The translations under genes were made by a program, and so were the position numbers. A stretch of 64,000 nt of DNA from Escherichia coli (GTDB taxonomy: Bacteria; Pseudomonadota; Gammaproteobacteria; Enterobacterales; Enterobacteriaceae). The stretch lies in assembly GCF_003018235.1 (NCBI RefSeq), contig NZ_CP027437.1. The stretch is one strand, 5' to 3'. Below, piece by piece: positions 13,101-47,445 of the stretch. How positions within the stretch are numbered: the stretch's first letter is position 1; every line of letters starts with the position of its first letter. The notes under the pieces are model-generated. The model ran no database searches, was not told where the DNA came from, and worked only from the letters and a program-made list of their open reading frames with translations.

Positions 13101-13218
13101 TTGATATTACAGTTGTTTTATTTTTATGGTGTCGATTCTGATTGTTTTTTGTTCATCACTAACACCGTTTGCCTAAAGTTGTTCGCAAGATGCATGTTTA
13201 AAACATTCTGGAGCGGGT

Positions 13219-17532: not shown

Positions 17533-17545
17533 TTCCTGGTTCAGG

Positions 17546-19504: not shown

Positions 19505-19590
19505 ACGTCGCAGACAACAACTCTGATGGCCCGTAAGGGCTTTTTTTGTACCTGAAATCAGCCTCTGAACGGGGCTGTGCGGAGACAGTT

Positions 19591-19914
19591 ATGGCAAAGA
19601 ATTTTGTAGAAGAAGGAAAAACGGTGGCGATTGTTGCCAGTGCAGCCATCAGCAGCGGAGATCTGGTGCAGGTGGGTGATGTTTTTGCGGTGGCGCTGAC
19701 CGATATTCCACAGGGTGAAACAGGCGACGGCATGACCGAAGGTGTGTTTATCCTGCCTAAACTGAAAACGGATGACATGAAAACGGGTAAGAAGGTTTAT
19801 CTGAAGTCCGGAAAAGTTCAGCTGACTAACAGCGGCTCTGATCCGCTGGTCGGGGTTGTCTGGGCAGATGCCGGAACCAGTGCAGAAGAAGTGCCGGTAA
19901 AACTCAATGTCTGA
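19591..19914 (+). CDS. DUF2190-like small head protein (putative decoration/cement)
   Basis: 107 aa immediately after the capsid gene; SD ggag. Confidence 0.5.
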   Translation: MAKNFVEEGKTVAIVASAAISSGDLVQVGDVFAVALTDIPQGETGDGMTEGVFILPKLKTDDMKTGKKVYLKSGKVQLTNSGSDPLVGVVWADAGTSAEEVPVKLNV

Positions 19915-20182
19915 TCCCTTTTCCCGGCTGGCAGCGCGTATGGATGCGATCACGGTCAGAAAGATGGGAAAGACAGCCTCGATTAATGATGTCGATATGG
20001 CTGTGATCCCGGGCGAAACACTGGCAGAGCTGAATGCTCTGTCCGGACCTGCGGTCTCTCTGGTGGTGTTTTCTTCGGGATACCGCCCACGGCGCGGGGA
20101 TCGCGTTGTTTATGACGGACAACAATGGACGGTCACACGGCATGAACGTTTTAACGGTAAGCCAATGATCTTTATTGAGTAA
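19907..20182 (+). CDS. Head-tail attachment/adaptor protein
   Basis: 91-aa ORF overlapping the preceding stop, between head and tail genes. Confidence 0.5.
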   Translation: MSDPFSRLAARMDAITVRKMGKTASINDVDMAVIPGETLAELNALSGPAVSLVVFSSGYRPRRGDRVVYDGQQWTVTRHERFNGKPMIFIE

Positions 20183-20193
20183 AGAGGTGTGGG

Positions 20194-20772
20194 ATGAAGG
20201 GGCTTGAGAATGCCATCCGCAATCTGAACAGCCTTGATACCCGTATGGTGCCACAGGCCAGCGCATGGGCGATAAACCGTGTGGCACAGAAAGCGGTCTC
20301 GGTTGCCACCCGGCAGGTTGCCGGGAATACCGTTGCGGGAGATAACCAGGTGAAAGGGATCCCCCTGAAACTGGTACGTCAGCGTGTCCGGGTGTTTAAA
20401 GCCAGTCCGTCAGGAAAAATGACGGCCAGGATCCGCGTTAACCGGGGCAATCTGCCCGCCATTAAGCTGGGGACAGCCCGGGTCAGACTGGCCCGGCGTG
20501 GTGGAAAACTGCAGTACCGTGGCAGTGTGCTGAAGGTGGGTAAATATCTTTTCCGGGATGCGTTTATTCAGCAACTGGCGAATGGTCGCTGGCATGTGAT
20601 GCGGCGTATTGATGGCAAAAATCGTTACCCCATTGATGTGGTGAAAATCCCGCTGTCCGGACCGCTGACACAGGCATTTGAAGATGCCCGCGACCACATC
20701 ATTGCTGCGGAAATGCCGAAACAGCTGGGGTATGCACTGAAACAACAACTGAGGTTATGGCTGACCCGATGA
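20194..20772 (+). CDS. Minor tail protein Z-like (tail completion)
   Basis: 192 aa, same size and position as lambda gpZ. Confidence 0.7.
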   Translation: MKGLENAIRNLNSLDTRMVPQASAWAINRVAQKAVSVATRQVAGNTVAGDNQVKGIPLKLVRQRVRVFKASPSGKMTARIRVNRGNLPAIKLGTARVRLARRGGKLQYRGSVLKVGKYLFRDAFIQQLANGRWHVMRRIDGKNRYPIDVVKIPLSGPLTQAFEDARDHIIAAEMPKQLGYALKQQLRLWLTR

Positions 20773-21170
20773 ACCGGCATACACAAATCCGCCAGGCCGT
20801 ACTGGCACGCCTTCGGGAACAGTGTGGAGACAGCGCCACGTTTTTTGACGGGCTTCCGGCATTTATTGATGTGCAGGAACTGCCTGCCGTGGCGGTGTGG
20901 CTGAGTGATGCTCAGTACACCGGAAAAATGACGGATGAAGATGACTGGCAGGCTGTTCTGCATATTGCCGTCTTCATCCGGGCACAGGCACCGGATTCAG
21001 AGCTGGATATGTGGATGGAGAGCACCATTTTCCCTGCCCTGAATGATATACCGGCACTTTCCGGACTCATCGACACCCTGATCCCACTCGGTTTTAACTA
21101 TCAACGTGATAATGAGATGGCCACCTGGGCGATGGCGGAAATCACGTACCAGATCACGTACACGAATTAA
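20757..21170 (+). CDS. Tail terminator protein U-like
   Basis: 137 aa between Z and the major tail protein. Confidence 0.7.
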   Translation: MADPMNRHTQIRQAVLARLREQCGDSATFFDGLPAFIDVQELPAVAVWLSDAQYTGKMTDEDDWQAVLHIAVFIRAQAPDSELDMWMESTIFPALNDIPALSGLIDTLIPLGFNYQRDNEMATWAMAEITYQITYTN

Positions 21171-21180
21171 GGAGGTGGTA

Positions 21181-21924
21181 ATGACCACACCAAATCCACT
21201 GGCAAAGACGAAAGGTGCGGGGACGACGTTCTGGATGTATACCGGCAACGGCGATGCGTTTGCGAACCCTTTGTCGGACACTGACTGGCTGCGTCTTGCG
21301 ATGGTGAAGGATCTGCAACCTGGCGAAATGACCGCTGATGCAGAAGATGACACTTATCTCGATGATGAAGATGCAGACTGGAAAACGACAACCCAGGGGC
21401 AGAAATCCGTTGGTGATACTTCGGCGACGCTGGCCTGGCGTCCGGGTGACAGCGGGCAGAAAAAACTGGTTCAGTTGTTCGACTCCGGTGAAGTCTGCGC
21501 GTTTCGTATCAAATATCCCAACGGCACTGTTGATGTTTTCCGTGCCTGGCTGAGCTCACTGGGTAAAACCATTGCCTCAAAAGACGTGATGACCCGCACT
21601 GTGAAAATCAGCGGTGTGGGGCGTCCGTATCTGGCAGAGGAAGGCACTGAAACCGTGAGCGTTACCGGGCTGACAGTATCACCGGCGTCTGCCAGTGTAA
21701 AAGTGGGAGCAACCACCACGCTGACCTTTACAGTAAAACCTGACGGAGCCAGTGACAAAGCGATCAGTGTGCATTCGTCAGATCCACAGACTGCCACGGT
21801 TACCCTGAACGGACTTGTGGCCACGGTAAAAGGCGTGAAGCAGGGCAGTGTCAGCATTGTGGGCATGACCGCTGACGGGAATTTTGTGGCTGTGACTGCG
21901 GTGACTGTCAGCGCAGCAGGTTAA
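21181..21924 (+). CDS. Major tail protein V with C-terminal Ig-like (Big_2) domain
   Basis: 247 aa with SD aaggagg; C-terminal VTGLTVSPASASVKVGATTTLTFTVKP... is Ig-like. Confidence 0.85.
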   Translation: MTTPNPLAKTKGAGTTFWMYTGNGDAFANPLSDTDWLRLAMVKDLQPGEMTADAEDDTYLDDEDADWKTTTQGQKSVGDTSATLAWRPGDSGQKKLVQLFDSGEVCAFRIKYPNGTVDVFRAWLSSLGKTIASKDVMTRTVKISGVGRPYLAEEGTETVSVTGLTVSPASASVKVGATTTLTFTVKPDGASDKAISVHSSDPQTATVTLNGLVATVKGVKQGSVSIVGMTADGNFVAVTAVTVSAAG

Positions 21925-21944
21925 CAGGACGATACTCATCATTT

Positions 21945-21968
21945 GCCCCGGTTATGCGGGGCTTTTTT
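21945..21968 (+). terminator. Intrinsic terminator/attenuator between V and G
   Basis: Hairpin gccccg-gttat-gcgggg followed by tttttt. Confidence 0.6.
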
Positions 21969-21984
21969 GCAGGTGGAGAACATG

Positions 21985-22371
21985 ATGTTTCTGAAACAGG
22001 ACACGTTTAATTATGAAAAACAGTCCGTGGTGCTCAGTGAGCTGTCCGGGCTGCAGAGAATTGAATATCTGACGTTTGTTCAGCAGCGAACGGCAAAGTT
22101 TGATGCCGGGGAGGGAGAACTGCCGGAGGCTGAACGACAGATTGCTTTTCTGCGGATGGGGATGGATATCAATGCCTGGCTGGTTTCCCGCTCACTGTGG
22201 AATGCGGATCAGTCTAAGGATGTAGAGACGCTTTGCGCATCCGTTATTACAACATGGTCGTATGATGCCCTGGGTGCGGGGGCGGAGATGGTTCTGTCGC
22301 TGAGCGGTATGGGGGCCATTGATAATGCCGTGGATGATGAGCATGAGGCGCTGACGCCGGAAAAGTCCTGA
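21985..22371 (+). CDS. Tail assembly chaperone G
   Basis: MFLKQDTFNYEKQSVVLSELSGLQRIEYL... resembles lambda G (MFLKTESFEHNGVTVTLSELSALQRIEHL). Confidence 0.85.
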   Translation: MFLKQDTFNYEKQSVVLSELSGLQRIEYLTFVQQRTAKFDAGEGELPEAERQIAFLRMGMDINAWLVSRSLWNADQSKDVETLCASVITTWSYDALGAGAEMVLSLSGMGAIDNAVDDEHEALTPEKS

Positions 22372-22709
22372 CGCGGGAAATGCAGTTTGTCATGCGGCTT
22401 GCCCGGGAGTTCCGGCGGGCAGACTGGCGGCGGATGCTGTCGGAAATGTCGGCCACTGAGCTTGGTGAGTGGGGCGATTATTTCCGGATGCAGAGCTTCA
22501 GTGATGTGTGGATGGATGCGCAGTTTGCCTCGCTGAAGGCATTGATCGTGATAATGGTGTCCGGCAGCAGTGATGCTGCGGTGGCTGATTTCAGCCTTTT
22601 ACCGGAAGAGAACGGGATACCGGAGCGAACGGACGAAGAACTGATGCATCTTGGGGAAGGTATTTCCGGAGGTGTGCGTTATGGAGCAGATAGCCAACCT
22701 GGTCATTGA
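21985..22709 (+). CDS. Tail assembly chaperone G-T, made by a -1 programmed frameshift near the end of G
   Basis: The T frame (22347-22709) is -1 relative to G and overlaps the last 8 codons of G; candidate slip site ggaaaag at 22359-22365. Confidence 0.6.
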
Positions 22710-25700
22710 TTTGGGGATTGATGCGGCAGAGTTTAAAAATGAAATTCCCCGTATCAAAAACCTTCTGAATGGTGCAGCCAGCGATGCAGAACGGTCTTCT
22801 GCCCGTATGCAGCGTTTTATGGAGCGTCAGACTCAGGCCGCCCGGCAGACAACGCAGGCAGCTTCTTCGGCTGCAACAGCCGCATCCGTCCATGCGCAGA
22901 CGGTGGAGAAGAACGCACAGGCTCATGAACGCATGGCCCGCGAGGTGGAGAAAACCCGCCAGCGCATGGAGGCACTGAGCCAGAAAATGCGCGAGGAACA
23001 GGCGCAGGCCATGGCTCTGGCGGAGGCTCAGGATAAAGCGGCTGCTGCGTTTTATCGTCAGATTGACAGTGTGAAACAGGCCAGTGCGGGGCTGCAGGAA
23101 TTACAGCGTATTCAGCAGCAGATCCGACAGGCCAGAAACAGTGGCGGGATTGGTCAGCAGGATTATCTGGCGCTGATTTCTGAGGTTACTGCGAAAACCC
23201 GTGTTCTTACACAGGCTGAGGAAGAGGCTACCCGACAGAAAGTGGCGTTTATCCGTCAGCTTAAAGAGCAGGCAACCCGCCTGAATCTTTCATCTTCTGA
23301 GTTGCTTCGTGCTAAGGCAGCCCAGCTGGGGGTAAGCAGTGCTGCAGAAGTGTATATCCGCAAAATGGAGCATGCAGGAAAAGCCACGCATTCGCTGGGT
23401 CTGAAAAGTGCATCAGCCCGCCAGGAGATAGGCGTTCTGATAGGTGAACTGGCCCGCGGCAATTTAGGGGCGCTGAGGGGATCCGGGATAACGCTGGCTA
23501 ACCGTGCCGGATGGATAGACACACTGATGTCACCGAAAGGCATGATGCTTGGCGGGGTTATTGGCGGTATTGCCGCGGCCGTCTATGGTCTGGGTAAAGC
23601 CTGGTATGACGGTCAGAAGGAGGGGGAAGAATTTAACCGCCAGTTGTCGCTGACGGGGCATTATGCCGGAGTCACTGCCGGGCAGCTGTGGACGCTCAGT
23701 CGTGCTATTTCCGGGAATGGTATCACGCAACATGCTGCAGCCGGTGCGCTGGCTCAGGTGGTGGGGAGTGGTGCATTTCGTGGAAACGATATCGGTATGG
23801 TGGCGAGAGCTGCCGCACAGATGGAGCGATCGGTTGGCCAGTCGGTCAGCGATACCATAAATCAGTTTAAGCGGCTGAAGGATGATCCTGTAAATGCCGC
23901 GAAGGCTCTGGACAATGAGCTGCATTTTCTTACTGCCACTCAGCTTGAGCAGATACGCGTCCTTGGGGAGCAGGGGCGGTCCAGTGATGCTGCACGGATA
24001 GCCATGTCTGCACTGGCAGAGGAAACCGGTCGGCGTACTGCGGATATTGATAATAACCTCAATGCGCTTGGCAGTACGCTGAAGTATCTGTCTGATTTGT
24101 GGAGTCGTTTCTGGGATGCGGCCATGAATATTGGTCGTGAAGACTCGCTGGATGAACAGATTGCCGCTTTACAGGAGAAAGTGTCGCGGGCGAAAAGACT
24201 CCCCTGGACGGCATCATCTTCTCAGGTTGAATACGATCAGCAGCGTCTTAACGATCTTCAGGAGAAAAAACGCCAGAAGGATTTGCAGGATGCAAAAGAG
24301 CAGGCAGAGCGGAATTATCAGGAGCAACAGAAACGCCGTAATGCTGAAAATGCTGCACTGAACCGGATGAATGAAACGGAAGCAGCACGACATCAGCGTG
24401 AAATTGCGCGTATTAATGCCATGCAGTACGCCGATCAGGCTGTCAGGGATGCGGCGATACAACGTGAAAATGAACGTTACGAGAAAGCCCTGGCATCCGG
24501 TAAGAAAAAAACACGCGAAACCCGTAATGATGAGGCCACCCGGTTATTGCTGCAGTACAGTCAGCAACAGGCACAGGTGGAAGGACAGATTGCTGCTGCC
24601 AGACAGTCAGTAGGCATTGCCACGGAAAGGATGACAGAAGCGCATAAACAGCTTCTGGCTCTGCAGCAGCGCATCAGCGACCTAGACGGGAAAAAACTTA
24701 CGGCAGATGAAAAGAGTGTGCTGGCCCGTAAAGATGAACTGATTCAGGCACTGACGCTGCTGGATGTAAAACAGCAGGAGCTTCAGAAACAGACGGCACT
24801 CAACGAGCTGAAGAAAAAAACAATTCAGCTGACCAGTCAACTGGCTGAAGAAGAGCGCGCTCAGCGTCAGCAACATGACCTGGATATCGCCACGGTGGGT
24901 ATGGGTGATCAGCAGCGACAGCGATATCAGGTACAACTGAGTCTTCGCCAGAAATACCAGCAACAGCTGGAGCAGTTGAGGCGGGATAGTGAGCAGAAAG
25001 GGACATATAACACGGATGACTACAGAAAGGCCGAGCAGGCGCTGACGGAGAGCCTGAACCGACAACTGAATGAGAATCGCCGTTACTGGCAACAGCTTGA
25101 AGTTGTGCAGGGTAACTGGAAAAACGGAGTCCTGCGTGCATTTCAGGATTTTACCGTGGATGCAGATAATACGGCAGAAACAGCAGAACAGGTGTTCTCG
25201 TCAGCCTTCAGCAACATGGGAAATGGCCTGGCAACTTTTGTCACTACCGGCAAACTCAATTTCAAATCCTTCACCTCTTCTGTGCTGTCAGATATGGCGA
25301 AAATCCTGGCGCAGGCAACCATGATGAAATCGATAAAAGGGATTGGCAGTGTACTGGGATTTGATCTCAGCAGCCTTTCCCTGAATGCCAATGGGGGGAT
25401 TTATCAGTCTGCTGATTTGAGTCGTTACAGTGGCACGGTGGTTAACCGTCCGACGTTTTTTGCTTTTGCAAAAGGCGCGGGTGTGATGGGGGAAGCGGGA
25501 CCTGAAGCCATTCTGCCATTGCGTCGTGGTGCTGACGGTAAGCTGGGGGTTGTGGCGGATATTGGGGGTTCAGGTATGGCGATGTTTTCCCCGCAGTACA
25601 ACATCGAGATCAATAACGATGGCACGAACGGGCAGATAGGTCCGGCTGCCCTGAAGGCGGTTTATGACCTCGGGAAAAAAGCGGCAGCGGACTTTATGCA

Positions 25701-25746
25701 ACAGCAGGCCCGTGATGGTGGTCGGTTAAGTGGAGCATATCGGTAA
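22681..25746 (+). CDS. Tail tape measure protein (gpH-like), 1021 aa
   Basis: Long coiled-coil-rich ORF; SD ggagg 8 nt upstream; start overlaps the end of T. Confidence 0.9.
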   Translation: MEQIANLVIDLGIDAAEFKNEIPRIKNLLNGAASDAERSSARMQRFMERQTQAARQTTQAASSAATAASVHAQTVEKNAQAHERMAREVEKTRQRMEALSQKMREEQAQAMALAEAQDKAAAAFYRQIDSVKQASAGLQELQRIQQQIRQARNSGGIGQQDYLALISEVTAKTRVLTQAEEEATRQKVAFIRQLKEQATRLNLSSSELLRAKAAQLGVSSAAEVYIRKMEHAGKATHSLGLKSASARQEIGVLIGELARGNLGALRGSGITLANRAGWIDTLMSPKGMMLGGVIGGIAAAVYGLGKAWYDGQKEGEEFNRQLSLTGHYAGVTAGQLWTLSRAISGNGITQHAAAGALAQVVGSGAFRGNDIGMVARAAAQMERSVGQSVSDTINQFKRLKDDPVNAAKALDNELHFLTATQLEQIRVLGEQGRSSDAARIAMSALAEETGRRTADIDNNLNALGSTLKYLSDLWSRFWDAAMNIGREDSLDEQIAALQEKVSRAKRLPWTASSSQVEYDQQRLNDLQEKKRQKDLQDAKEQAERNYQEQQKRRNAENAALNRMNETEAARHQREIARINAMQYADQAVRDAAIQRENERYEKALASGKKKTRETRNDEATRLLLQYSQQQAQVEGQIAAARQSVGIATERMTEAHKQLLALQQRISDLDGKKLTADEKSVLARKDELIQALTLLDVKQQELQKQTALNELKKKTIQLTSQLAEEERAQRQQHDLDIATVGMGDQQRQRYQVQLSLRQKYQQQLEQLRRDSEQKGTYNTDDYRKAEQALTESLNRQLNENRRYWQQLEVVQGNWKNGVLRAFQDFTVDADNTAETAEQVFSSAFSNMGNGLATFVTTGKLNFKSFTSSVLSDMAKILAQATMMKSIKGIGSVLGFDLSSLSLNANGGIYQSADLSRYSGTVVNRPTFFAFAKGAGVMGEAGPEAILPLRRGADGKLGVVADIGGSGMAMFSPQYNIEINNDGTNGQIGPAALKAVYDLGKKAAADFMQQQARDGGRLSGAYR

Positions 25747-26075
25747 TGGAGACGTTTCACTGGAAAGTGCGCCCGGATATGAATGTGGTATCAGAGCCGA
25801 AAGTGGTGACAGTGAAGCTGGGCGATGGTTATGAACAGCGTCGTGCGGCGGGACTGAATAACCAGTTGTCGACTTACAGCGTGACGATACGTGTTCGTAA
25901 ATGTGAACACCCATCTTTAAAAGCCTTTCTGGAACGGCACGGTGGCGTCCGTGCATTTCAGTGGACGCCACCTTATGACTGGAAACCGATCAGGGTGGTT
26001 TGTCGTAAATGGTCGGCAAGCGTGGGGGCGCTGTGGGTAACCATAACGGCAGATTTTGAACAGGTCGTGGCATAG
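25746..26075 (+). CDS. Minor tail protein M
   Basis: 109 aa, size and sequence match lambda gpM. Confidence 0.9.
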   Translation: METFHWKVRPDMNVVSEPKVVTVKLGDGYEQRRAAGLNNQLSTYSVTIRVRKCEHPSLKAFLERHGGVRAFQWTPPYDWKPIRVVCRKWSASVGALWVTITADFEQVVA

Positions 26076-26084
26076 GAGGCTCTG

Positions 26085-26783
26085 ATGCAGGATATTCCAC
26101 AGGAAACACATCATGAGACGACACGCCTCACTCAGTCAGCCCAGGTGGTGCTATGGGAAATCGATCTGGCAGAGGTCGGTGGTGAACGTTATTTTTTCTG
26201 TAATGAGCAGAACGAAAAAGGTGAGCCGGTTATCTGGCAGGGGCGGCAGTATCAGGTATACCCCATTCAGGGGACGGGATTTGAACTGAACGGCAAGGGC
26301 AGTGCTGCCCGTCCGACACTGACGGTTTCTAACCTGCACGGCATGGTCACCGGGATGGCGGAAGACCTGCAGAGTCTGGTCGGAGGAACGGTGGTCCGGC
26401 GTAAGGTTTACGCCCGTTTTCTGGATGCGGTGAACTTCGTCAACGGAAACAGTGACGCCGATCCGGAGCAGGAGGTGATCAGCCGCTGGCGCATCGAGCA
26501 GTGCAGCGAACTGAGCGCGGTGAGTGCCTCTTTTGTACTGTCCACGCCGACGGAAACGGACGGTGCCGTTTTTCCGGGACGTATCATGCTGGCCAACACC
26601 TGCACCTGGACCTATCGCGGTGATGAGTGCGGTTATCACGGTCCGGCGGTCGCGGATGAATATGATCAGCCGACGTCCGATATCACGAAGGATAAATGCA
26701 GCAAATGCCTGAGCGGCTGTAAGTTTCGCAATAACGTCGGCAACTTTGGCGGCTTCCTTTCCATTAACAAACTTTCGCAGTGA
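26085..26783 (+). CDS. Minor tail protein L
   Basis: 232 aa with C-terminal Cys cluster as in lambda gpL. Confidence 0.9.
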   Translation: MQDIPQETHHETTRLTQSAQVVLWEIDLAEVGGERYFFCNEQNEKGEPVIWQGRQYQVYPIQGTGFELNGKGSAARPTLTVSNLHGMVTGMAEDLQSLVGGTVVRRKVYARFLDAVNFVNGNSDADPEQEVISRWRIEQCSELSAVSASFVLSTPTETDGAVFPGRIMLANTCTWTYRGDECGYHGPAVADEYDQPTSDITKDKCSKCLSGCKFRNNVGNFGGFLSINKLSQ

Positions 26784-27532
26784 ATCCCATGACAGAGACA
26801 GAATCAGCGATTCTGGCGCACGCCCGGCGATGTGCGCCAGCGGAGTCGTGCGGCTTCGTGGTGAGAACACCGGAGGGGGAAAAATATTTTCCCTGCGTGA
26901 ATATCTCCGGTGAGCCGGAGGAGTATTTCCGGATGTCGCCGGAGGACTGGCTGCGGGCAGAGATGCAGGGTGAGATTGTGGCGCTGGTCCACAGCCACCC
27001 CGGTGGTCTGCCCTGGCTGAGTGAGACCGACCGGCGGCTGCAGGTGCAGAGTGATTTGCCGTGGTGGCTGGTTTGCCGGGGGGCGATTCACAAGTTCCGC
27101 TGTGTGCCACATCTTTCCGGGCGGCGCTTTGAGCACGGGGTGACGGACTGTTACACGCTGTTCCGGGATGCTTACCATCTGGCGGGGATTGAGATGCCGG
27201 ATTTTCATCGCGAGGATGACTGGTGGCGTAACGGTCAGAATCTCTATCTGGATAATCTGGAGGCCACAGGGCTGTATCAGGTGCCGTTGTCAGCGGCGCA
27301 GCCGGGCGATGTGCTGCTGTGCTGTTTTGGTTCATCGGTGCCGAATCATGCCGCCATTTACTGTGGTGACAGCGAGCTGCTGCACCATATTCCTGAACAA
27401 CTGAGCAAACGAGAGAGGTACACCGACAAATGGCAGCGACGCACACACTCCCTCTGGCGTCACCGGGCATGGCACGCATCTGCCTTTACGGGGATTTACA
27501 ACGATTTGGCCGCCGCATCGACCTTCGAGTGA
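26780..27532 (+). CDS. Tail tip protein K (JAB/MPN plus NlpC/P60 domains)
   Basis: HSHPGG metalloprotease-like motif and C-terminal Cys/His hydrolase region. Confidence 0.85.
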   Translation: MNPMTETESAILAHARRCAPAESCGFVVRTPEGEKYFPCVNISGEPEEYFRMSPEDWLRAEMQGEIVALVHSHPGGLPWLSETDRRLQVQSDLPWWLVCRGAIHKFRCVPHLSGRRFEHGVTDCYTLFRDAYHLAGIEMPDFHREDDWWRNGQNLYLDNLEATGLYQVPLSAAQPGDVLLCCFGSSVPNHAAIYCGDSELLHHIPEQLSKRERYTDKWQRRTHSLWRHRAWHASAFTGIYNDLAAASTFE

Positions 27533-28077
27533 AAACGGGGTCCGAAGCCATCCGGGCGCTGGCCATGCAGATCCCGGCGTTTCGTCAGAAACTGAGCGAC
27601 GGCTGGTACCAGGTACGCATTGCCGGGCGTGATGCAGGTGAAACCGAATTGTCTGCCCGTCTTAATGAGCCGCTGGCAAATGGTGCCGTGATCCACATCG
27701 TGCCGCGTCTGGCGGGAGCTAAAAGTGGCGGTGTGTTTCAGGTGGTGCTGGGGGCGGCGCTGATTGCGGTGGCATGGTGGAACCCTGTGGGCTGGCTGGG
27801 TGCCGCGGCTGTATCGGGCATGTATGCGGCAGGGGCCAGTATGATCCTGGGCGGAGTGGCGCAGATGCTGGCACCGAAAGCCAGGACGCCCACGGCAGCA
27901 AGTACAGATAACGGCAAACAGAACACCTATTTCTCCTCACTGGATAACATGGTTGCCCAGGGCAATGTTCTGCCCGTTCTGTACGGTGAAATGCGCGTGG
28001 GGTCGCGGGTGGTCTCTCAGGAGATCAGCACGGCAGACGAAGGGGATGGTGGTCAGGTTGTGGTGATTGGTCGCTGA
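27430..28077 (+). CDS. Tail assembly protein I
   Basis: N-terminus MAATHTLPLASPGMARICLYGDLQRFGRRIDLRV matches lambda gpI; overlaps K. Confidence 0.9.
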   Translation: MAATHTLPLASPGMARICLYGDLQRFGRRIDLRVKTGSEAIRALAMQIPAFRQKLSDGWYQVRIAGRDAGETELSARLNEPLANGAVIHIVPRLAGAKSGGVFQVVLGAALIAVAWWNPVGWLGAAAVSGMYAAGASMILGGVAQMLAPKARTPTAASTDNGKQNTYFSSLDNMVAQGNVLPVLYGEMRVGSRVVSQEISTADEGDGGQVVVIGR

Positions 28078-28137
28078 TGAAAAACGTTTTATGTGAAACC
28101 GCCTCCGGGCGGTTTTGTCGTTTATGGAGCGTGAGGA

Positions 28138-31100
28138 ATGGGTAAAGGCAGCAGTAAGGGGCATACTCCGCGCGAAGCGAAGGACAACCTGAAGTCCACG
28201 CAGTTGCTGAGTGTGATCGATGCCATCAGCGAAGGGCCGGTTGAAGGTCCGGTGGACGGATTAAAAAGCGTGCTGCTGAACAGTACGCCAGTGCTGGACA
28301 CTGAGGGGAATACCAACATCTCCGGCGTCACGGTGGTGTTCCGGGCCGGTGAGCAGGAGCAGACTCCGCCGGAGGGGTTTGAATCCTCCGGTTCCGAGAC
28401 GGTGCTGGGTACGGAAGTGAAATATGACACGCCGATCACCCGCACCATCACGTCGGCAAACATCGACCGTCTGCGCTTTACCTTCGGTGTGCAGGCACTG
28501 GTGGAAACCACCTCAAAGGGGGACAGGAATCCATCGGAAGTCCGCCTGCTGGTTCAGATACAGCGTAACGGTGGCTGGGTGACGGAAAAAGACATCACCA
28601 TTAAGGGCAAAACCACCTCGCAGTATCTGGCCTCGGTGGTGGTGGATAACCTGCCGCCGCGCCCGTTTAATATCCGGATGCGCAGGATGACGCCGGACAG
28701 CACCACAGACCAGCTGCAGAACAAAACGCTCTGGTCGTCATACACCGAAATTATCGATGTGAAACAGTGCTACCCGAACACGGCACTGGTCGGCGTGCAG
28801 GTGGACTCGGAGCAGTTCGGCAGCCAGCAGGTGAGCCGTAATTATCATCTGCGCGGGCGTATTCTGCAGGTGCCGTCGAACTATAACCCGCAGACGCGGC
28901 AATACAGCGGTATCTGGGACGGAACGTTTAAACCGGCATACAGCAACAACATGGCCTGGTGTCTGTGGGATATGCTGACCCACCCGCGCTACGGCATGGG
29001 GAAACGTCTTGGTGCGGCGGATGTGGATAAATGGGCGCTGTATGTCATCGGCCAGAATTGCGACCAGTCGGTGCCGGACGGCTTTGGCGGCACGGAGCCG
29101 CGCATCACCTGTAATGCCTGGCTGACCACACAGCGCAAGGCGTGGGATGTGCTCAGTGATTTCTGCTCGGCGATGCGCTGTATGCCGGTATGGAACGGGC
29201 AGACGCTGACGTTCGTGCAGGACCGGCCATCGGATAAGGTGTGGACCTATAACCGCAGTAATGTGGTGATGCCGGATGATGGCGCGCCGTTCCGCTACAG
29301 CTTCAGCGCCCTGAAGGACCGCCATAATGCCGTTGAGGTGAACTGGATTGACCCGAACAACGGCTGGGAGACGGCGACAGAGCTTGTTGAAGATACGCAG
29401 GCCATTGCCCGTTACGGTCGTAATGTCACGAAGATGGATGCCTTTGGTTGTACCAGTCGGGGGCAGGCACACCGCGCCGGGCTGTGGCTGATTAAAACGG
29501 AGCTGCTGGAGACGCAGACCGTGGACTTCAGCGTGGGCGCAGAAGGGCTTCGCCATGTACCGGGCGATGTCATTGAAATCTGCGATGATGACTATGCGGG
29601 GATCAGCATCGGCGGGCGCGTGCTGGCGGTGAACAGCCAGACCCGGACGCTGACGCTCGACCGTGAAATCACGCTGCCATCCTCCGGTACCACGCTGATA
29701 AGCCTGGTTGACGGAAGTGGCAATCCGGTCAGCGTGGAGGTCCAGTCCGTCACCGACGGCGTGAAGGTGAAAGTGAGCCGTGTTCCTGACGGCGTTGCAG
29801 AATACAGCGTGTGGGGGCTGAAGTTGCCGACGTTGCGCCAGCGCCTGTTCCGCTGTGTGAGTATCCGTGAGAACGATGACGGCACGTATGCCATCACTGC
29901 CGTGCAGCATGTACCGGAAAAAGAGGCCATCGTGGATAACGGGGCGCACTTTGACGGCGACCAGAGCGGCACGGTGAATGGTGTCACGCCGCCAGCGGTG
30001 CAGCACCTGACCGCCGAAGTCACCGCAGACAGCGGGGAATATCAGGTGCTGGCGCGCTGGGACACGCCGAAGGTGGTGAAGGGCGTGAGCTTCCTGCTCC
30101 GTCTGACCGTAACAGCGGATGACGGCAGTGAGCGGCTGGTCAGCACGGCCCTGACGACGGAAACCACATACCGCTTCAGGCAACTGGCGCTGGGGCGTTA
30201 CACGCTGACGGTCCGGGCGGTAAATGCGTGGGGACAGCAGGGCGATCCGGCATCGGTATCGTTCCGGATTGCCGCACCGGCTGCGCCGTCGCGGATTGAG
30301 CTGACGCCGGGCTATTTTCAGATAACCGCCACGCCGCATCTTGCGGTTTATGATCCGACGGTACAGTTTGAGTTCTGGTTCTCGGAAACGCGGATTACCG
30401 ATATCAGGCAGGTTGAAACCACAGCCCGCTACCTTGGCACGGGGCTGTACTGGATAGCCGCCAGTATCAATATCAAACCGGGCCATGATTATTACTTTTA
30501 TATCCGCAGTGTGAACATCGTTGGCAAATCGGCATTCGTGGAGTCCGTCGGTCGGGCGAGCGATGATGCGGAAGGTTACCTGGATTTTTTCAAAGGCAAG
30601 ATAACCGAATCCCATCTCGGCAAGGAGCTGCTGGAAAAAGTCGATCTGACGGAGGATAACGCCAGCAGACTGGATGAGTTTTCGAAAGAGTGGAAGGATG
30701 CCAACGATAAATGGAATGCCATGTGGGCTGTCAAAATTGAGCAGACCAAAGACGGCAAACATTATGTCGCGGGTATTGGCCTCAGTATGGAGGACACGGA
30801 GGAAGGCAAACTGAGCCAGTTTCTGGTTGCCGCTAACCGTATCGCGTTTATTGACCCGGCAAACGGGAATGAAACGCCGATGTTTGTGGCGCAGGGCAAT
30901 CAGATATTCATGAACGACGTGTTCCTGAAACGCCTGACGGCCCCCACCATTACCAGTGGTGGAAATCCACCGGCATTTTCCCTGACACCGGATGGGCGGC
31001 TGACGGCGAAAAATGCCGATATCAGCGGTAACGTGAATGCGAACTCCGGGACGCTCAACAACGTCACGATTAACGAGAACTGTCGGGTTCTGGGAAAACT

Positions 31101-31599: not shown

Positions 31600-32199
31600 A
31601 TGCGTAAACTTTATGCCGCCATTTTGTCCGCAGCCATTTGTCTGGCCGTATCCGGTGCGCCTGCATGGGCATCTGAACATCAGTCCACGCTGAGCGCGGG
31701 GTATCTTCATGCCTCGACGAACGTTCCCGGCAGCGATGATCTTAACGGGATTAACGTGAAATACCGTTATGAGTTTACGGACACACTGGGGCTGGTGACG
31801 TCATTCAGCTATGCAGGAGACAAGAATCGCCAGCTTACCCGTTACAGCGATACCCGCTGGCATGAAGATTCCGTTCGTAACCGCTGGTTCAGCGTGATGG
31901 CGGGGCCGTCTGTGCGCGTGAATGAATGGTTCAGCGCGTATGCGATGGCGGGTGTGGCTTACAGCCGTGTGTCGACTTTCTCCGGGGATTATCTCCGCGT
32001 AACTGACAACAAGGGGAAAACGCACGACGTGCTGACCGGAAGTGATGACGGTCGCCACAGCAACACGTCTCTGGCGTGGGGAGCTGGCGTGCAGTTTAAC
32101 CCGACCGAATCCGTGGCCATTGATATTGCTTATGAAGGCTCCGGCAGTGGCGACTGGCGCACTGACGGTTTCATCGTGGGTGTCGGTTATAAATTCTGA
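31600..32199 (+). CDS. lom: Lom-like outer membrane protein (Ail/Lom family)
   Basis: Signal peptide, beta-barrel alternation and C-terminal GVGYKF. Confidence 0.9.
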
Positions 32200-32226
32200 T
32201 TAGCCAGGTAACACAGTGTTATGACA

Positions 32227-32252
32227 GCCCGCCGGTTCAGGCGGGCTTTTTT
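32227..32252 (+). terminator. Rho-independent terminator after lom
   Basis: Hairpin gcccgcc-ggttca-ggcgggc followed by tttttt. Confidence 0.75.
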
Positions 32253-32263
32253 GTGGGGTGAAT

Positions 32264-35200
32264 ATGGCAGTAAAGATTTCAGGTGTACTGAAAGACGGCA
32301 CAGGAAAACCGGTACAGAACTGCACAATCCAGCTGAAAGCAAAACGTAACAGCACCACGGTGGTGGTGAACACGCTGGCCTCAGAAAATCCGGATGAAGC
32401 CGGGCGTTACAGTATGGACGTTGAGTATGGTCAGTACAGCGTTATTCTGTTGGTGGAGGGATTCCCGCCGTCACATGCCGGGACTATCACCGTGTATGAA
32501 GATTCTCAACCCGGTACGCTGAATGATTTTCTCGGTGCCATGACGGAGGATGATGCCCGTCCGGAGGCACTGCGCCGTTTTGAAGTGATGGTGGAAGAGG
32601 TGGCGCGTAACGCGTCCGCAGTGGCACAGAACACGGCAGCCGCGAAGAAGTCAGCCGGCGATGCCAGCACATCAGCCCGTGAGGCGGCAACCCATGCGAC
32701 TGATGCTGCAGACTCAGCACGCGCAGCCAGCACGTCAGCCGGACAGGCCGTGTCGTCGGCTCAGTCAGCGTCTTCCAGCGCAGGAACTGCATCAGCAAAG
32801 GCCACTGAAGCATCAAAAAGTGCTGCCGCTGCAGAGTCCTCAAAAAGCGCGGCGGCCACCAGTGCCGGTGCGGCAAAAACGTCAGAAACGAATGCTTCAG
32901 CGTCACAACAATCAGCAGCCACTTCTGCATCCACCGCGACCACGAAAGCGTCAGAAGCTGCCACCTCAGCCCGGGATGCGGCGGCCTCAAAAGAGGCAGC
33001 GAAATCATCAGAAACGAACGCATCCTCGAGCGCCAGTAGTTCCGCTTCCTCGGCAACGGCGGCAGGAAATTCCGCGAAGGCGGCAAAAACGTCCGAGACG
33101 AACGCCAGGTCTTCTGAGACGGCAGCGGGACAGAGCGCCTCAGCTGCGGCAGGCTCAAAAACAGCGGCTGCATCATCTGCCAGTGCCGCGTCAACAAGTG
33201 CCGGGCAGGCCTCAGCCAGTGCCACTGCCGCCGGAAAATTGGCAGAAAGCGCTGCATTGTCCGCTTCAACAGCCACAACGAAGGCTGGCGAAGCCGCTGA
33301 ACAGGCCAGCGCAGCAGCGAGGTCTGCATCCGCAGCGAAGACATCCGAAACGAACGCGAAAGCGTCGGAAACCAGTGCAGAATCCTCAAAAACGGCAGCT
33401 GCATCGTCCGCCAGTTCGGCGGCGTCATCGGCATCATCTGCGTCTGCTTCAAAAGATGAGGCGACCAGACAGGCATCAGCAGCGAAAGGCAGCGCCACGA
33501 CGGCATCCACGAAGGCGACAGAGGCTGCTGGCAGTGCGACGGCGGCAGCACAGAGCAAGAATACGGCAGAATCCGCAGCAACGCGCGCCGAGACAGCAGC
33601 TAAACGGGCAGAGGATATTGCATCCGCCGTGGCGCTTGAGGATGCAAGTACGACGAAAAAGGGGATAGTACAGCTCAGCAGTGCGACCAACAGTTCGTCT
33701 GAAACGCTGGCGGCAACGCCAAAGGCAGTAAAATCAGCCTATGACAATGCAGAGAAACGTCTGCAGAAAGACCAGAACGGCGCTGATATACCCGATAAGG
33801 GACGCTTCCTGAACAACATTAACGCGGTCAGTAAAACAGACTTTGCTGATAAGCGTGGTATGCGTTATGTGCGGGTTAACGCTCCTGCAGGTGCAATATC
33901 TGGAAAATATTACCCTGTTGTTGTTATGCGTTCTGCTGGCTCAGTAAGCGAACTGGCATCAAGGGTCATTATCACCACGGCAACGCGAACCGCAGGCGAT
34001 CCGATGAATAACTGCGAGTTTAACGGATTTGTTATGCCTGGTGGCTGGACTGACAGGGGGCGTTATGCTTATGGAATGTTCTGGCAATATCAAAACAATG
34101 AACGAGCCATCCACTCAATAATGATGAGTAATAAGGGCGATGATTTGCGCTCTGTGTTCTATGTTGATGGCGCTGCTTTCCCTGTTTTTGCGTTTATCGA
34201 AGATGGCCTGTCAATATCCGCACCTGGTGCTGATCTCGTTGTTAATGATACGACCTATAAGTTTGGGGCAACAAATCCGGCGACTGAATGTATCGCGGCG
34301 GACGTTATCCTTGATTTTAAGAGTGGGCGTGGTTTTTATGAGTCTCATTCGTTAATTGTTAACGATAACTTGTCGTGCAAAAAACTTTTTGCCACAGACG
34401 AAATTGTAGCGCGTGGTGGTAATCAGATTCGAATGATAGGTGGGGAGTATGGTGCATTATGGCGTAATGATGGCGCTAAAACTTACCTGCTGCTTACCAA
34501 TCGAGGTGATGTTTATGGTGGCTGGAATACATTAAGACCGTTTGCTATTGATAACGCAACCGGCGAACTGGTTATTGGAACCAAACTGTCCGCAAGTCTG
34601 AACGGTAATGCATTAACAGCAACAAAGCTGCAAACGCCAAGACTGGTTTCTGGTGTTGAGTTTGATGGTTCCAAAGATATTACTTTAACCGCCGCGCATG
34701 TGGCTGCTTTTGCCAGAAGGGCAACGGATACATATGCCGATGCGGATGGTGGCGTTCCCTGGAATGCCGAATCAGGCGCTTACAATGTCACCCGCTCTGG
34801 CGACAGCTATATTCTGGTTAACTTCTATACCGGAGTCGGAAGTTGCCGGACCCTGCAGATGAAGGCGCATTACAGAAATGGTGGTCTGTTCTACCGTTCT
34901 TCAAGAGATGGCTATGGTTTTGAGGAAGACTGGGCAGAAGTTTATACCTCGAAAAATCTTCCACCAGAAAGCTACCCAGTCGGCGCACCAATCCCGTGGC
35001 CATCAGATACCGTTCCGTCTGGTTATGCCCTGATGCAGGGGCAGACTTTTGACAAATCTGCCTACCCGAAACTTGCAGCCGCTTATCCGTCAGGCGTGAT
35101 CCCTGATATGCGTGGCTGGACGATTAAGGGCAAGCCCGCCAGTGGTCGTGCCGTATTGTCTCAGGAACAGGATGGCATTAAATCGCATACCCACAGCGCC

Positions 35201-35677
35201 AGCGCATCCAGTACGGATTTGGGGACGAAAACCACATCGTCGTTTGATTACGGCACTAAATCCACGAATAACACCGGGGCGCATACGCACAGTCTGAGTG
35301 GCTCTACGGGGTCTGCCGGTGCTCATACTCATGGTAATGGTATTCGTTGGCCAGGAGGCGGCGGTTCTGCGTTAGCATTTTATGATGGCGGTGGGTTCAC
35401 TTATGTCCAGGATTCACAGTATCAAGTAAGCCCGGGGACTTCTTCCAGTAGATCGTATTATCAACGTATTCAGACACAGTCAGCAGGTGCTCATACCCAC
35501 TCGCTGTCTGGTACTGCAGCAAATGCTGGCGCACATGCACATACTGTAGGTATTGGTGCGCATACGCACTCGGTTGCGATTGGGTCACATGGACACACCA
35601 TCACCGTTAACGCTGCTGGTAACGCGGAAAACACCGTCAAAAACATCGCATTTAACTATATTGTGAGGCTCGCATAA
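32264..35677 (+). CDS. stf: Side tail fibre protein Stf
   Basis: N-terminus [26 protein letters not shown]; ~330-residue Ala/Ser/Thr-rich repeat region; C-terminal GAHTHS His-x-His repeats. Confidence 0.9.
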
Positions 35678-36252
35678 TGGCATTCAGAATGAGTGAACAA
35701 GCACGGACCATAAAAATTTATAACCTGCTGGCCGGAACTAATGAATTTATTGGTGAAGGTGACGCATATATTCCTCCTCATACAGGTCTGCCTGCAAACA
35801 GTACCGATATTGCACCGCCAGATATTCCGGCTGGCTTTGTGGCTGTTTTCAACAGTGATGAGGCATCGTGGCATCTCGTTGAAGACCATCGGGGAAAAAC
35901 GGTCTATGACGTGGCTTCCGGCGACGCGTTATTTATTTCTGAACTCGGCTCATTACCGGAAAATGTCACCTGGTTATCCCCGGAAGGGGAGTTTCAGAAG
36001 TGGAACGGTACAGCCTGGGTGAAGGATACGGAAGCAGAAAAACTGTTCCGGATCCGGGAGGCGGAAGAAACAAAAAACAGCCTGATGCAGGTAGCCAGTG
36101 AGCATATAGCGCCGCTTCAGGATGCTGTGGATCTGGAGATCGCAACGGAGGAAGAAACCTTGTTGCTGGAAGCCTGGAAAAAGTATCGGGTGTTGCTGAA
36201 CCGTGTTGATACATCAACTGCACCGGATATTGAATGGCCAGCCCTACCGTAG
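35677..36252 (+). CDS. tfa: Tail fibre assembly protein Tfa
   Basis: 191 aa; start overlaps stf stop (ATAATGG). Confidence 0.85.
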
Positions 36253-36349
36253 GGTAAGATATATAAATTCTATAATTAGAAGTATCTTTCCATTTAAGGC
36301 TAGGAAGGGGGGCTTGGAAAACGTAAGGAATCTCACACCGAGATTATTT

Positions 36350-36940
36350 TTATATATCAGGTGTCTGATTTTTTGCTTTAGCTCTTAAAATGGTTTGCCG
36401 CGAGGTTTTGAATTCTTGGGCAATGTCACTTATATTTATACCTGACTTAATTTGCTCTAGTACCCTCTGTATTTGTTCATCATTTAACACAGGTGGGCGA
36501 CCAAATCGCTTTCCTGCGCCCCGTGCTCTTAATATCCCTGAATGAGTACGCTCAAGTAAAAGGTCTCGCTCAAATTCAGCGACTGCTGAAATTACTTGCA
36601 TCATCATTTTTCCAGGTGGACTGGTCAGGTCAACGCCCCCCAATGCTAAGCAATGCACTTTGATACCTGCTTTGGTCAGTTGTTCCACCGTTTTACTGAT
36701 ATCCATTGGATTACAACCGAGGCGATCCAGTTTTGTGACAATCAATGCATCACCTCTTTTCAGTCGATCAAGCAACTGGTTAAAACCAGGACGCTCACTG
36801 GTTGCTGCTGAGCCGCTAATTTGTTCTTCAATTATTTGCTGAGATTTGATGTTAAAACCTGCACTTTCGATTTCCCGACGTTGATTTTTGGTTGTCTGTT
36901 CCAGAGTTGATACCCGACAGTAAGCATAAATTCGAGACAT
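36350..36940 (-). CDS. pinQ: Serine recombinase (Pin/Gin-type DNA invertase homologue), 196 aa
   Basis: N-terminal catalytic YCRVSTLEQ and C-terminal HTH; matches K-12 PinQ in size and position. Confidence 0.85.
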
Positions 36941-37258
36941 AGTGAGATCTTCTATACGAAATTGGTGTACATATCATAATGCATCTCAGAAAATAATTTT
37001 GATTATTTTTGTACATATTTGTATGTACACGTTCGAAAATAAACGAATGCGTATGCAACCCCGTAATTTTGGTGAGACCCAAAATCGATTTTGTGAAAAA
37101 TGGCCTTAACTCGGTTTGTTTTTCGAGTTCCGGGGGGACTCAAGGAAGAAGAATAGTGTTGCGTGTTATTTTAACCAGATTTCAAGTTGTTTGGTCGTGA
37201 AAAAGTGGAGCAAAATGTTGTTAAAGTGGAAAAATGATAAAAAAGTAAGTTTATTATA

Positions 37259-37492
37259 TTACATTTTACCATTTAAATTTTTGTTGTCTTTAAGAACTGA
37301 TATCGCTGTTTGTAATAATTCTTTGTTATCCAGCCATGACTTTTTCTTTATGTTTCCTTCAATGTAATCAAGCAATGTTCTGGTATTGATAGGTCTTCCC
37401 TGTTTTGCTACTTCCACTACAGCATCCCCTAGGATAATTCTTACTTCAGGAAGCTGCGCAGGGAACCACTTTAGGGTGTCTTTTGATTTCAT
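37259..37492 (-). CDS. ydfK: Small protein YdfK (YnaE family), 77 aa
   Basis: MKSKDTLKWFPAQLPEVRIILGDAVVEVAKQGRPINTRTLLDYIEGNIKKKSWLDNKELL... Confidence 0.85.
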   Translation of the reverse strand: MKSKDTLKWFPAQLPEVRIILGDAVVEVAKQGRPINTRTLLDYIEGNIKKKSWLDNKELLQTAISVLKDNKNLNGKM

Positions 37493-38277
37493 GAAGATAT
37501 TCCTTAAAATATTATTGATTTTCATTGCGATATTGTATGTCTGATTCAGGATATGTTGACTTATACATCGGTTTTGTCTGGGTTATTGGATATGCCAATC
37601 CCTAATTTTATTAGAGCATGACTAAAAATGCTGAATATGATAAGGAGCGAAGTGATTATCAGTATGCTGTTCATATAGCCTCGAATTAGTAATGTGTTAT
37701 ATATGATATAGTTGACAATTTTTATCCTGGGTGTTCTTAAAGTTCGTAGATAAACATTGTCGTTTCAGGTATACAGGAATGCTAACAGGTGGCGGCAAAA
37801 ATCAGGCGGTTTATGGCGCAAGCTGAAGTGGCAACTGCAAACTATCTTATGCAGAGACTCTACACGGATTGGGTTTAAAAGTATACATAGATAACAGTTT
37901 TTATCTGAAGAAGAAAAATATCAAGGTGATATAGCCTATATGCCTTTGATGCGGAGGAATGAATGTGATGGGAGTGATGTATCTGAATAGTTGAAAAACC
38001 GCAGACACGCCTTATGCAAGAACGTGCTGCGGTTGGCTGGTAAATTTTTCGATAGTGCGAGTATTGAATGATTTCCAGCCGTTATTGATTTTACGCGTAA
38101 ATCCATGAAAAAACTACTTATCTGTTGGGGAGTTTTTTTGGGGCATATATGGGACAGAAATAGGCCCCAGATAGACACTGAGATCGAACTTAGGATGCTT
38201 TTTAAAAAATGCAACTATCTGAAAAAACCTAGAAAACGCCAAGGAAACCACAGGATGGGAAAAAACACCTGTGAATT

Positions 38278-39561
38278 ATGGATTTCCAGTTATATTCGCT
38301 CGGCGCAGCGTTAGTGTTTCATGAAATATTTTTTCCTGAATCATCAACGGCAATGGCGTTAATTCTGGCAATGGGAACCTACAGTGCAGGTTATGTGGCG
38401 CGTATTGTCGGAGCATTTATTTTCGGCAAAATGGGCGACAGAATCGGGCGTAAAAAAGTGCTCTTTATTACCATCACTATGATGGGGATCTGTACCACCT
38501 TAATTGGTGTGCTGCCGACCTATGCACAAATTGGTGTGTTTGCGCCAATTTTGCTGGTGACGCTGCGTATTATTCAGGGGCTGGGGGCAGGCGCGGAAAT
38601 TTCCGGTGCCGGCACGATGCTGGCGGAATATGCACCAAAAGGTAAGCGCGGAATTATCTCCTCATTTGTGGCTATGGGAACTAACTGCGGAACCTTGAGC
38701 GCAACGGCAATCTGGGCCTTTATGTTCTTCATTCTCAGTAAAGAGGAACTGCTGGCGTGGGGATGGCGTATACCGTTCCTGGCGAGCGTTGTCGTGATGG
38801 TCTTTGCTATCTGGTTGCGTATGAATCTGAAAGAAAGCCCGGTCTTTGAGAAGGTTAACGACAGCAACCAACCGACAGCAAAACCTGCACCTGCTGGTAG
38901 CATGTTCCAGAGCAAATCCTTCTGGCTGGCAACAGGGCTGCGTTTTGGTCAGGCTGGTAACTCCGGTTTAATTCAGACTTTCCTTGCAGGCTATTTAGTA
39001 CAGACGTTATTGTTTAACAAAGCAATTCCAACAGATGCATTGATGATCAGTTCGATTCTCGGCTTTATGACCATTCCGTTCCTTGGTTGGTTATCCGATA
39101 AAATTGGTCGCCGGATCCCGTATATTATTATGAATACCTCCGCGATTGTGCTGGCATGGCCAATGCTTTCTATCATCGTAGATAAAAGCTATGCCCCGAG
39201 CACCATTATGGTGGCACTGATTGTGATTCATAACTGTGCGGTGCTGGGATTATTTGCTCTGGAAAACATTACCATGGCAGAAATGTTCGGCTGTAAAAAC
39301 CGCTTTACCCGGATGGCCATTTCTAAAGAAATTGGTGGTCTTATCGCTTCCGGTTTTGGTCCTATCCTGGCGGGTATTTTCTGCACCATGACGGAGTCCT
39401 GGTATCCGATCGCCATTATGATCATGGCATATTCAGTGATTGGTTTAATCTCTGCGCTGAAAATGCCAGAAGTGAAAGACCGTGATTTAAGTGCGCTGGA
39501 AGACGCTGCGGAAGATCAACCGCGTGTTGTCAGAGCTGCGCAACCTTCCAGAAGTCTTTAA
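38278..39561 (+). pseudogene. ydfJ: MFS metabolite:H+ symporter YdfJ, N-terminally truncated by the prophage insertion
   Basis: 427-aa ProP/KgtP-like transporter ORF; in-frame stop 2 codons upstream of the first Met. Confidence 0.8.
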
Positions 39562-47142: not shown

Positions 47143-47176
47143 CATTCATTGAGAAAACTGATGCTACTGTGTCAAC

Positions 47177-47274
47177 GATCCGTTATCAGTGCAGGAAAAT
47201 GCCTGTTAGCGTAAAAGCAAAACACAAATCTATCCATGCAAGCATTCACCGCCGGTTTACTGGCGGTTTTTTTT
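47177..47274 (+). ncRNA. mgrR: Putative PhoP-activated Hfq-binding sRNA MgrR (5' end approximate)
   Basis: PhoP box upstream; intrinsic terminator accgcc-ggtttact-ggcggt followed by tttttttt at 47247-47274; between dgcZ and mgtS. Confidence 0.45.
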
Positions 47275-47349
47275 CGCCGTCATAAAAATCAGGCCCCTTG
47301 TACACAGTTGTAACAAGGGGCCGGTTAGGTGAGGGATTATCTCCGTTCA

Positions 47350-47445
47350 TTAGTCATCCCATTTGTGGCTGAAATACGCGGCCAGAAAACCAGAAAATAA
47401 AATTATTCCCAGTACGGCCATAAAAACATTCATATTACCCAGCAT
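47350..47445 (-). CDS. mgtS: Small membrane protein MgtS (YneM), 31 aa
   Basis: MLGNMNVFMAVLGIILFSGFLAAYFSHKWDD; SD ggagg 7 nt upstream; hairpin terminator at 47281-47322. Confidence 0.8.
   Translation of the reverse strand: MLGNMNVFMAVLGIILFSGFLAAYFSHKWDD

Follow-up and report, generated by a model that had tools for sequence, protein, structure and literature searches.

The DNA studied here is a stretch of 64,000 nucleotides from Escherichia coli (contig NZ_CP027437.1 of assembly GCF_003018235.1), referred to as a whole as the window. It holds the right end of a lambdoid prophage related to Qin of strain K-12, and this end was located inside ydfJ, a gene encoding a transporter of the MHS family. 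Three features meet at the junction, an attachment (att) site of the attR type:

38126 to 38275, no strand: P arm of attR, the arm coming from phage attP, about 150 bp (from conservation and continuity with attP)
38276 to 38286, no strand: att core TTATGGATTTC (from a four-way comparison; coincides with the K-12 Qin boundaries)
38278 to 39561, plus strand: ydfJ', MHS-family MFS transporter gene without codons 1 to 28 (TIGR00883)

The ydfJ' frame comprises 427 codons from the ATG at 38278, and a single codon, ATT (38275-38277), separates this ATG from an in-frame TGA at 38272-38274. The original prediction, that the frame opens at 38278 with a stop two codons upstream, was thereby confirmed. 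It had also stated that the N-terminal part of the transporter is missing. In strain KTa008 the uninterrupted ydfJ lies 57 bp downstream of rspB and encodes 455 amino acids (aa), 28 codons more than in the window, and the absent residues are MTIEKHERSTKDLVKAAVSGWLGTALEF.

The attR junction in ydfJ

Four att sequences were compared: attB from the uninterrupted ydfJ of KTa008, attP from the free phage mEp460_ev081, attL from K-12 Qin and attR from the window. The exact 11-bp core was the sole block common to them, and its flanks exchange reciprocally among the four, as predicted for site-specific recombination:

KTa008 attB: GCGCTTGAAT TTATGGATTTC CAGTTATATTC
mEp460_ev081 attP: ACACCTGTGAA TTATGGATTTC AAGAGTCATAC
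K-12 attL: GCGCTTGAAT TTATGGATTTC AAGAGTCATGC
window attR: ACACCTGTGAA TTATGGATTTC CAGTTATATTC

Judged from this alignment, strand exchange would have to occur within the 11-bp block that is identical in attB, attP, attL and attR. Positions 38276-38286 of the window almost certainly represent the attR core of a lambdoid prophage of the Qin/mEp460 type. The alignment with an uninterrupted ydfJ, which had been proposed as a check, thus defined all four att sites together with the core. The junction lies inside ydfJ as predicted, but the core had been expected at about 38270-38280, an estimate that overlaps the true core and is about 6 bp too far left.

The attB site falls within codons 27-32 of ydfJ, in the context GAAT-TTATGGATTTC-CAG. 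The shortened frame opens with native codon 29, the ATG at 38278, which falls within the core; the TGA upstream of it belongs to the phage P arm. Similarity to prophage-free genomes begins at position 38272 of the window.

The annotation of K-12 gives the same boundaries. Its feature 'cryptic prophage Qin' (1632277..1652745) has the first base of the core in attR as its start and stops one base short of the core in attL. The 28 codons lacking from ydfJ' sit at the far end of K-12 Qin, as the 36-codon open reading frame (ORF) ynfP beside intQ, and K-12 attL runs from the same core into the integrase gene of mEp460_ev081. In the free phage, attP is adjoined by a 426-aa integrase gene that matches tyrosine-recombinase models; a TGAA-N8-TTCA dyad surrounds the core, and one match to the consensus of integration host factor (IHF) was found in the P' arm. 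Neither tRNA nor tmRNA genes were found in the window, and the junction is therefore not a tRNA-type att site.

An attR in ydfJ is already known from the K-12 annotation and from published work (PMC6379469, PMC8112680). Integration of Qin has been described as site-specific, at the 5' end of ydfJ and with the loss of 28 codons (PMC6379469). For related ydfJ prophages of E. coli strains that produce Shiga toxin (STEC), Nakamura et al. (2021, PMC8112680) report an experimentally determined att site, with attP obtained by polymerase chain reaction on the circularised form. What is added here are the exact core coordinates, a breakdown into modules of the 800 bp on its left side, occupancy figures and a caveat on excision.

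Several points weigh against the assignment. Only the right junction is inside the window; attL, int and xis lie beyond it, and K-12 and the free phage are the only places where the reciprocal features were observed. A search of the P arm in the window for the IHF consensus found none. In this DNA the exact points of cleavage, like the arm-type and IHF sites, are candidates only, as read from sequence. Finally, the att sequence of Nakamura et al. is 18 or 19 bp long (PMC8112680), whereas only 11 bp are exact here; the longer sequence must therefore take in imperfect flanking matches.

As the junction shows, phage attP (P arm, TTATGGATTTC, P' arm) has recombined with attB inside ydfJ. The catalyst would be the phage's 426-aa tyrosine integrase, of the IntQ family, acting in the manner of lambda with exchange inside the 11-bp identity, and on the lambda paradigm arm-type binding and host bending proteins would assist. 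One product is attR, present in the window, in which the phage P arm runs through the core into ydfJ codons 29-455. In the other, attL, ydfJ codons 1-31 would be joined through the core region to the P' arm and int; it would lie beyond the window and corresponds to ynfP in K-12. Excision would yield attP CACCTGTGAA-TTATGGATTTC-AAGAGTCAT and attB GCGCTTGAAT-TTATGGATTTC-CAGTTATATTC. Insertion would cut ydfJ-ydfI off from the co-directional rspA-rspB and from any promoter serving ydfJ-ydfI.

The occupancy of the site was determined in 5,426 complete E. coli genomes with two probes of 241 nt, one spanning the intact attB and the other spanning the P-arm/ydfJ' junction of the window. Coverage of the attB probe was unbroken in 2,009 genomes (about 37% empty), and the junction probe was covered at 88-100% identity in 3,169 (about 58% occupied). 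In 1,987 genomes the whole ydfK-ynfT-arm-ydfJ' arrangement was as in the window. The occupancy agrees with a published figure of 48% for Qin in an earlier set of 638 genomes (PMC6379469). The best match to the window among complete E. coli RefSeq genomes was 99.5% for the junction and 99.8% for the structural region. An uninterrupted ydfJ as short as the frame in the window would have meant a junction elsewhere; in the 2,009 prophage-free genomes the gene is 28 codons longer. With this occupancy, ydfJ is among the sites that prophages use most in E. coli. In the window, the prophage's right boundary is fixed at 38276-38286 and ydfJ should be called truncated, which matters little beyond correct annotation.

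Modular prophage DNA left of the core

The 785 bases from 37493 to 38277 have a GC content of 37.1%, compared with 48.4% for the whole window. The AT-richness that had been noticed in these 800 bp was thus real, and it is expected of lambdoid accessory DNA. The region had been described as starting at 37493, the base just after the ydfK start codon, and as holding only short ORFs. The latter is correct as far as it goes, but one of the ORFs is ynfT, and together with a hairpin, a dinI-like remnant and the P arm it makes the region structured prophage DNA. Left of the P arm, the following features were distinguished:

37259 to 37492, minus strand: ydfK, cold shock protein, 77 aa from MKSKDTL (annotated in K-12 and other matching genomes)
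37561 to 37674, minus strand: ynfT, 37-aa small protein of the YnaM/YnfT family (NF041477; annotated in K-12)
37675 to 37998, no strand: conserved non-coding spacer upstream of ynfT-ydfK (similarity to other prophages)
37999 to 38032, no strand: G+C-rich hairpin (fold, conserved)
38114 to 38146, minus strand: 11-codon dinI-like remnant, ATG (38146), 10 codons and a stop, MPQKNSPTDK (prophage alignment)

Module edges were taken as the points where similarity to other prophages starts or stops. By these breakpoints the 800 bp is a stack of exchangeable modules, namely the ydfK-ynfT cargo, the spacer, the hairpin, the dinI-like remnant and the P arm. The breakpoints of the right end may be used for typing ydfJ prophages.

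The stretch 38126-38275 was assigned as the P arm because it is conserved across ydfJ prophages and continuous with the attP of mEp460_ev081. Its conservation was 82-99% in K-12 Qin, AR_452, O157 MB41-1 and E2855, despite differing upstream cargo. The motif GAAAAAAC occurs at 38107, 38221 and 38259, three copies in 160 bp compared with 11 in the 64 kb, both strands counted. The copies at 38221 and 38259, nearest to the core, are conserved in other ydfJ prophages, and the GAAAAAAC copies may be arm-type integrase sites.

Next to the P arm, about 200 bp have been deleted at approximately 38118-38126, leaving the remnant of a dinI-like gene and its 3' flank. In the prophages of O157 MB41-1 and E2855, which also sit in ydfJ, the minus strand carries an intact DinI-like gene of 80 aa at the same place. 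No match to three intact DinI-like proteins was obtained in the window by tblastn, and no DinI ORF of about 80 aa was present. Upstream of the remnant no LexA box (CTG-N10-CAG) was found. The deletion is common to K-12 Qin, AR_452 and the free phage mEp460_ev081 and therefore predates this integration.

The hairpin at 37999-38032 folds with −20.7 kcal/mol; its z value is −3.8 on the minus strand, where U5 follows, and −2.75 on the plus strand. The former end of the dinI-like gene was about 75 nt away, with the hairpin on its downstream side, and one compensatory stem change was found in AR_452. It is probably a terminator orphaned by the loss of the dinI-like gene; either strand, or neither, may use it as such. 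At gathering thresholds Rfam gave nothing in 37200-38400. The Shigella small RNA CssrB was considered as a match on the plus strand at 37894-38031, but it scored 28.7 bits against a gathering threshold of 76 and rested mainly on the hairpin, and its membership was not accepted.

Beyond the hairpin, the spacer and pin-ydfK-ynfT form a cargo module that is also present at other sites, in Rac-type prophages (ttcA/uspF) and in one prophage at prfC. The similarity to these prophages extends to positions 38036-38118 of the window and then ends. The ynfT product matched NF041477 with 63.9 bits (cut-off 35) over positions 1-34 of 34, and no Pfam or NCBIfam family was found for the product of ydfK. The approximately 320 bp upstream of ynfT-ydfK are 88-97% conserved at three integration sites and have no annotated gene. 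A promoter-like site was found on the minus strand at 37909-37880 in a consensus scan only. The spacer may constitute the promoter and a long leader for the cold-shock gene ydfK, and ynfT would then lie within this leader.

Relatives of the prophage and its structural region

The body of the prophage in the window contains the following further features:

13219 to 36252, plus strand: lambda-like late/structural module, complete by its ORFs, with DUF1441 small terminase, TerL, portal and ClpP/capsid fusion (ORF lengths, Pfam DUF1441), followed by tail genes, tape measure, J, Lom, Stf and Tfa
36350 to 36940, minus strand: pinQ homologue, Pin-type serine DNA invertase, 196 aa (serine recombinase matches)

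All structural genes are open, colinear with those of mEp460_ev081 and of the lengths annotated there. The original prediction had contrasted a long, largely intact structural region with the heavily deleted Qin of K-12, and this held: K-12 Qin passes straight from nohA' to a truncated stfQ, whereas the window keeps the terminase-to-tail-fibre module. At the right end the two agree closely. K-12 MG1655 Qin (ydfJ b1543, ynfP b4534, intQ b1579) has the same core, a ydfJ' of 427 codons, a P arm with 98% identity over 422 bp and the same order of ydfK, ynfT and dinI-like remnant. IS2 interrupts its intQ, which is a pseudogene.

The free phage mEp460_ev081 comes from infant faeces. It is described as temperate and functional, carries dicB, dicF, dicA/C and rem, and is a live Qin relative (PMC10448788). 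Around its attP (LR597641.1, about 24,600-24,810) it shares with the window the P arm, the core, the cargo layout and the dinI-like deletion, with 98.6% identity across the 1,090 bp that lead up to and include the core. Past the core, the phage continues into the P' arm and the integrase gene, and the window into ydfJ. The stf and early regions are only partly homologous. The element in the window is a structurally complete relative of K-12 Qin and of this functional phage.

The STEC PPydfJ prophages (PMC8112680) use the same site in ydfJ and have a P arm of 82-88% identity. Unlike the window they carry an intact dinI-like gene, effector loci (nleG, DUF1076) beside attR replace pin-ydfK-ynfT, and they often stand in tandem clusters.

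The layout also resembles that of lambda, in which the tail-fibre-side arm is joined through a short core to bacterial DNA at attR. Lambda inserts between gal and bio, its attR has the order P-O-B', and its integrase gene lies beside the other arm. In mEp460_ev081, too, a tyrosine integrase gene adjoins the P' arm, and the dyad at its attP core and the IHF-consensus match in its P' arm are candidate counterparts of the lambda sites. Lambda differs from the window in its core and integrase specificity, and the attB in the window lies inside a coding sequence and truncates it. Beside the lambda paradigm the protein-binding sites of the window are predicted only.

The identity to mEp460_ev081 is uneven along the window. 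It amounts to 98.7% over 13194-31083 (17.9 kb) and to about 95% over 35491-38286, colinear up to the core, and the stf segment between 31083 and 35491 is largely without a match. This pattern of lambdoid mosaicism would fit another history, in which the junction was not made by this particular phage and homologous recombination with an incoming or neighbouring lambdoid phage grafted a complete mEp460-like structural module onto an older resident Qin-type attR (ydfK-ynfT, P arm, ydfJ'), giving a mosaic that would not necessarily be excisable. The sharing of pin-ydfK-ynfT with prophages at other sites fits such a course, as do the recombination and inversions between ydfJ and ompW prophages documented in PMC8112680, and in E. 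coli D72 an element with these structural genes has lost its left end. We nevertheless consider this history unlikely. The single phage mEp460_ev081 holds the structural genes, pin, ydfK, ynfT, the dinI remnant and attP in the same order, and since one free phage carries the whole order, the arrangement in the window needs no extra recombination.

In D72 (NZ_CP035312.1) the structural region is 98.7% identical to that of the window and the whole left side has been lost through an IS1-bounded deletion. At 18573-19997 an IS1 joins a truncated rspA to rem, and rspB, the N-terminus of ydfJ, attL, int and the immunity region are gone. Because D72 keeps the structural genes without attL and int, the intact virion genes of the window do not prove an ability to excise.

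The truncated ydfJ and the remainder of the window

The product of ydfJ' scored 452.9 bits against TIGR00883 (curated cut-off 443.45) over profile positions 7-400 of 400. Full-length YdfJ covers positions 1-400, and the copy in the window is without positions 1-6 and a 22-residue N-terminus. By this comparison ydfJ' is a truncated member of the MHS family with a match short of full length. Alignment to MHS family models points to the loss of about half of transmembrane helix 1. In other genomes the Prokaryotic Genome Annotation Pipeline labels ydfJ' as 'incomplete; missing N-terminus'.

The preserved reading frame invites the proposal that ydfJ' is still functional, either through expression of the 427-aa product by transcription entering from the prophage arm or starting at an internal promoter, with selection on it maintained, or through frequent excision that restores the full gene, a reversible or 'active' lysogeny. 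The truncated protein passes the TIGR00883 cut-off, and functional phages use the ydfJ site. All six prophage-occupied alleles that were compared have kept 427 open codons (6/6). Their pairwise ratios of non-synonymous to synonymous change (pN/pS) were 0.00-0.08, with differences that are almost only synonymous; the window and K-12 ydfJ' differ by 27 synonymous changes and 1 non-synonymous change. Such low ratios are unexpected for a long-dead pseudogene, but they fit equally well with recent independent integrations into alleles that had already diverged. In a test for relaxed selection on ydfJ', the K-12-type nohA'-stfQ' deletion was used as a marker of shared descent. It was found in 376 genomes, almost all of them 100% identical, and the test was thus powerless. 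As the marker is confined to near-clonal genomes, pairwise pN/pS cannot separate kept selection from recent integrations.

Other observations speak against a functional ydfJ'. No promoter-like site was found on the plus strand in 37510-38278, no Shine-Dalgarno sequence was evident in the bases before the ATG at 38278, and the probable loss of half a transmembrane helix would add to this. In the literature the event is described as promoter loss plus truncation (PMC6379469). Continued function appears quite improbable. If repeated excision did restore the gene, Qin-type occupancy (58% of complete genomes) would act as a reversible switch on the rspAB-ydfJ-ydfI sugar-acid utilisation cluster and not as plain inactivation of a gene. 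A literature search for ydfJ together with ydfI and rspB returned only a genome announcement.

The plain 427-aa coding sequence listed for RefSeq K-12 b1543 might suggest that ydfJ is natively of 427 aa; the AT-rich DNA would then be common intergenic sequence, or would stem from an unrelated deletion or insertion sequence event. This reading is refuted by the 455-aa ydfJ contiguous with rspB in 2,009 genomes, the recovery of the absent 28 codons at the other Qin end in K-12 (ynfP) and the continuity of the flank with phage attP.

From about 38278 rightwards the chromosome carries ydfJ', ydfI, ydfZ, rspR, ydfG, dcp and onwards, the order as far as rspR being taken from the ORFs and the annotation of matching genomes. 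Leftwards from the junction the prophage presents ydfK, pin, tfa, stf, J and the tail, head and terminase genes, and further left the genes for lysis, cold-shock genes, Q and hok/sok; a DnaC-like gene stands at the left edge.

A pinQ or recombinase gene is annotated in K-12 and CFSAN018748 at the same place as the invertase gene of the window. In 32000-37300, which includes the C-terminus of the tail fibre and tfa, a search for an invertible segment near pin found only three weak inverted repeats of 16-17 nt, which were taken as chance. The Pin invertase is apparently without an invertible segment or an alternative tail-fibre cassette, like pinQ in K-12.

An Rfam match to IS009 (36020-36218, 221.7 bits) is situated wholly inside tfa (35677-36252) and probably reflects conserved tfa coding sequence. 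In the early/replication region of the prophage, a homologue of QueH (epoxyqueuosine reductase) at 842-1621 lies beside a DnaC/IstB-like gene that is cut by the window edge. Rfam matches at gathering score were also obtained at 2068-2242, 7490-7913, 10390-10775 and 47143-47356 and represent sok antitoxin RNA, cspA-type leaders and STnc560. The two cspA-type 5' leaders precede prophage cold-shock genes, and the Hfq-binding small RNA STnc560 belongs to the chromosome on the right side.

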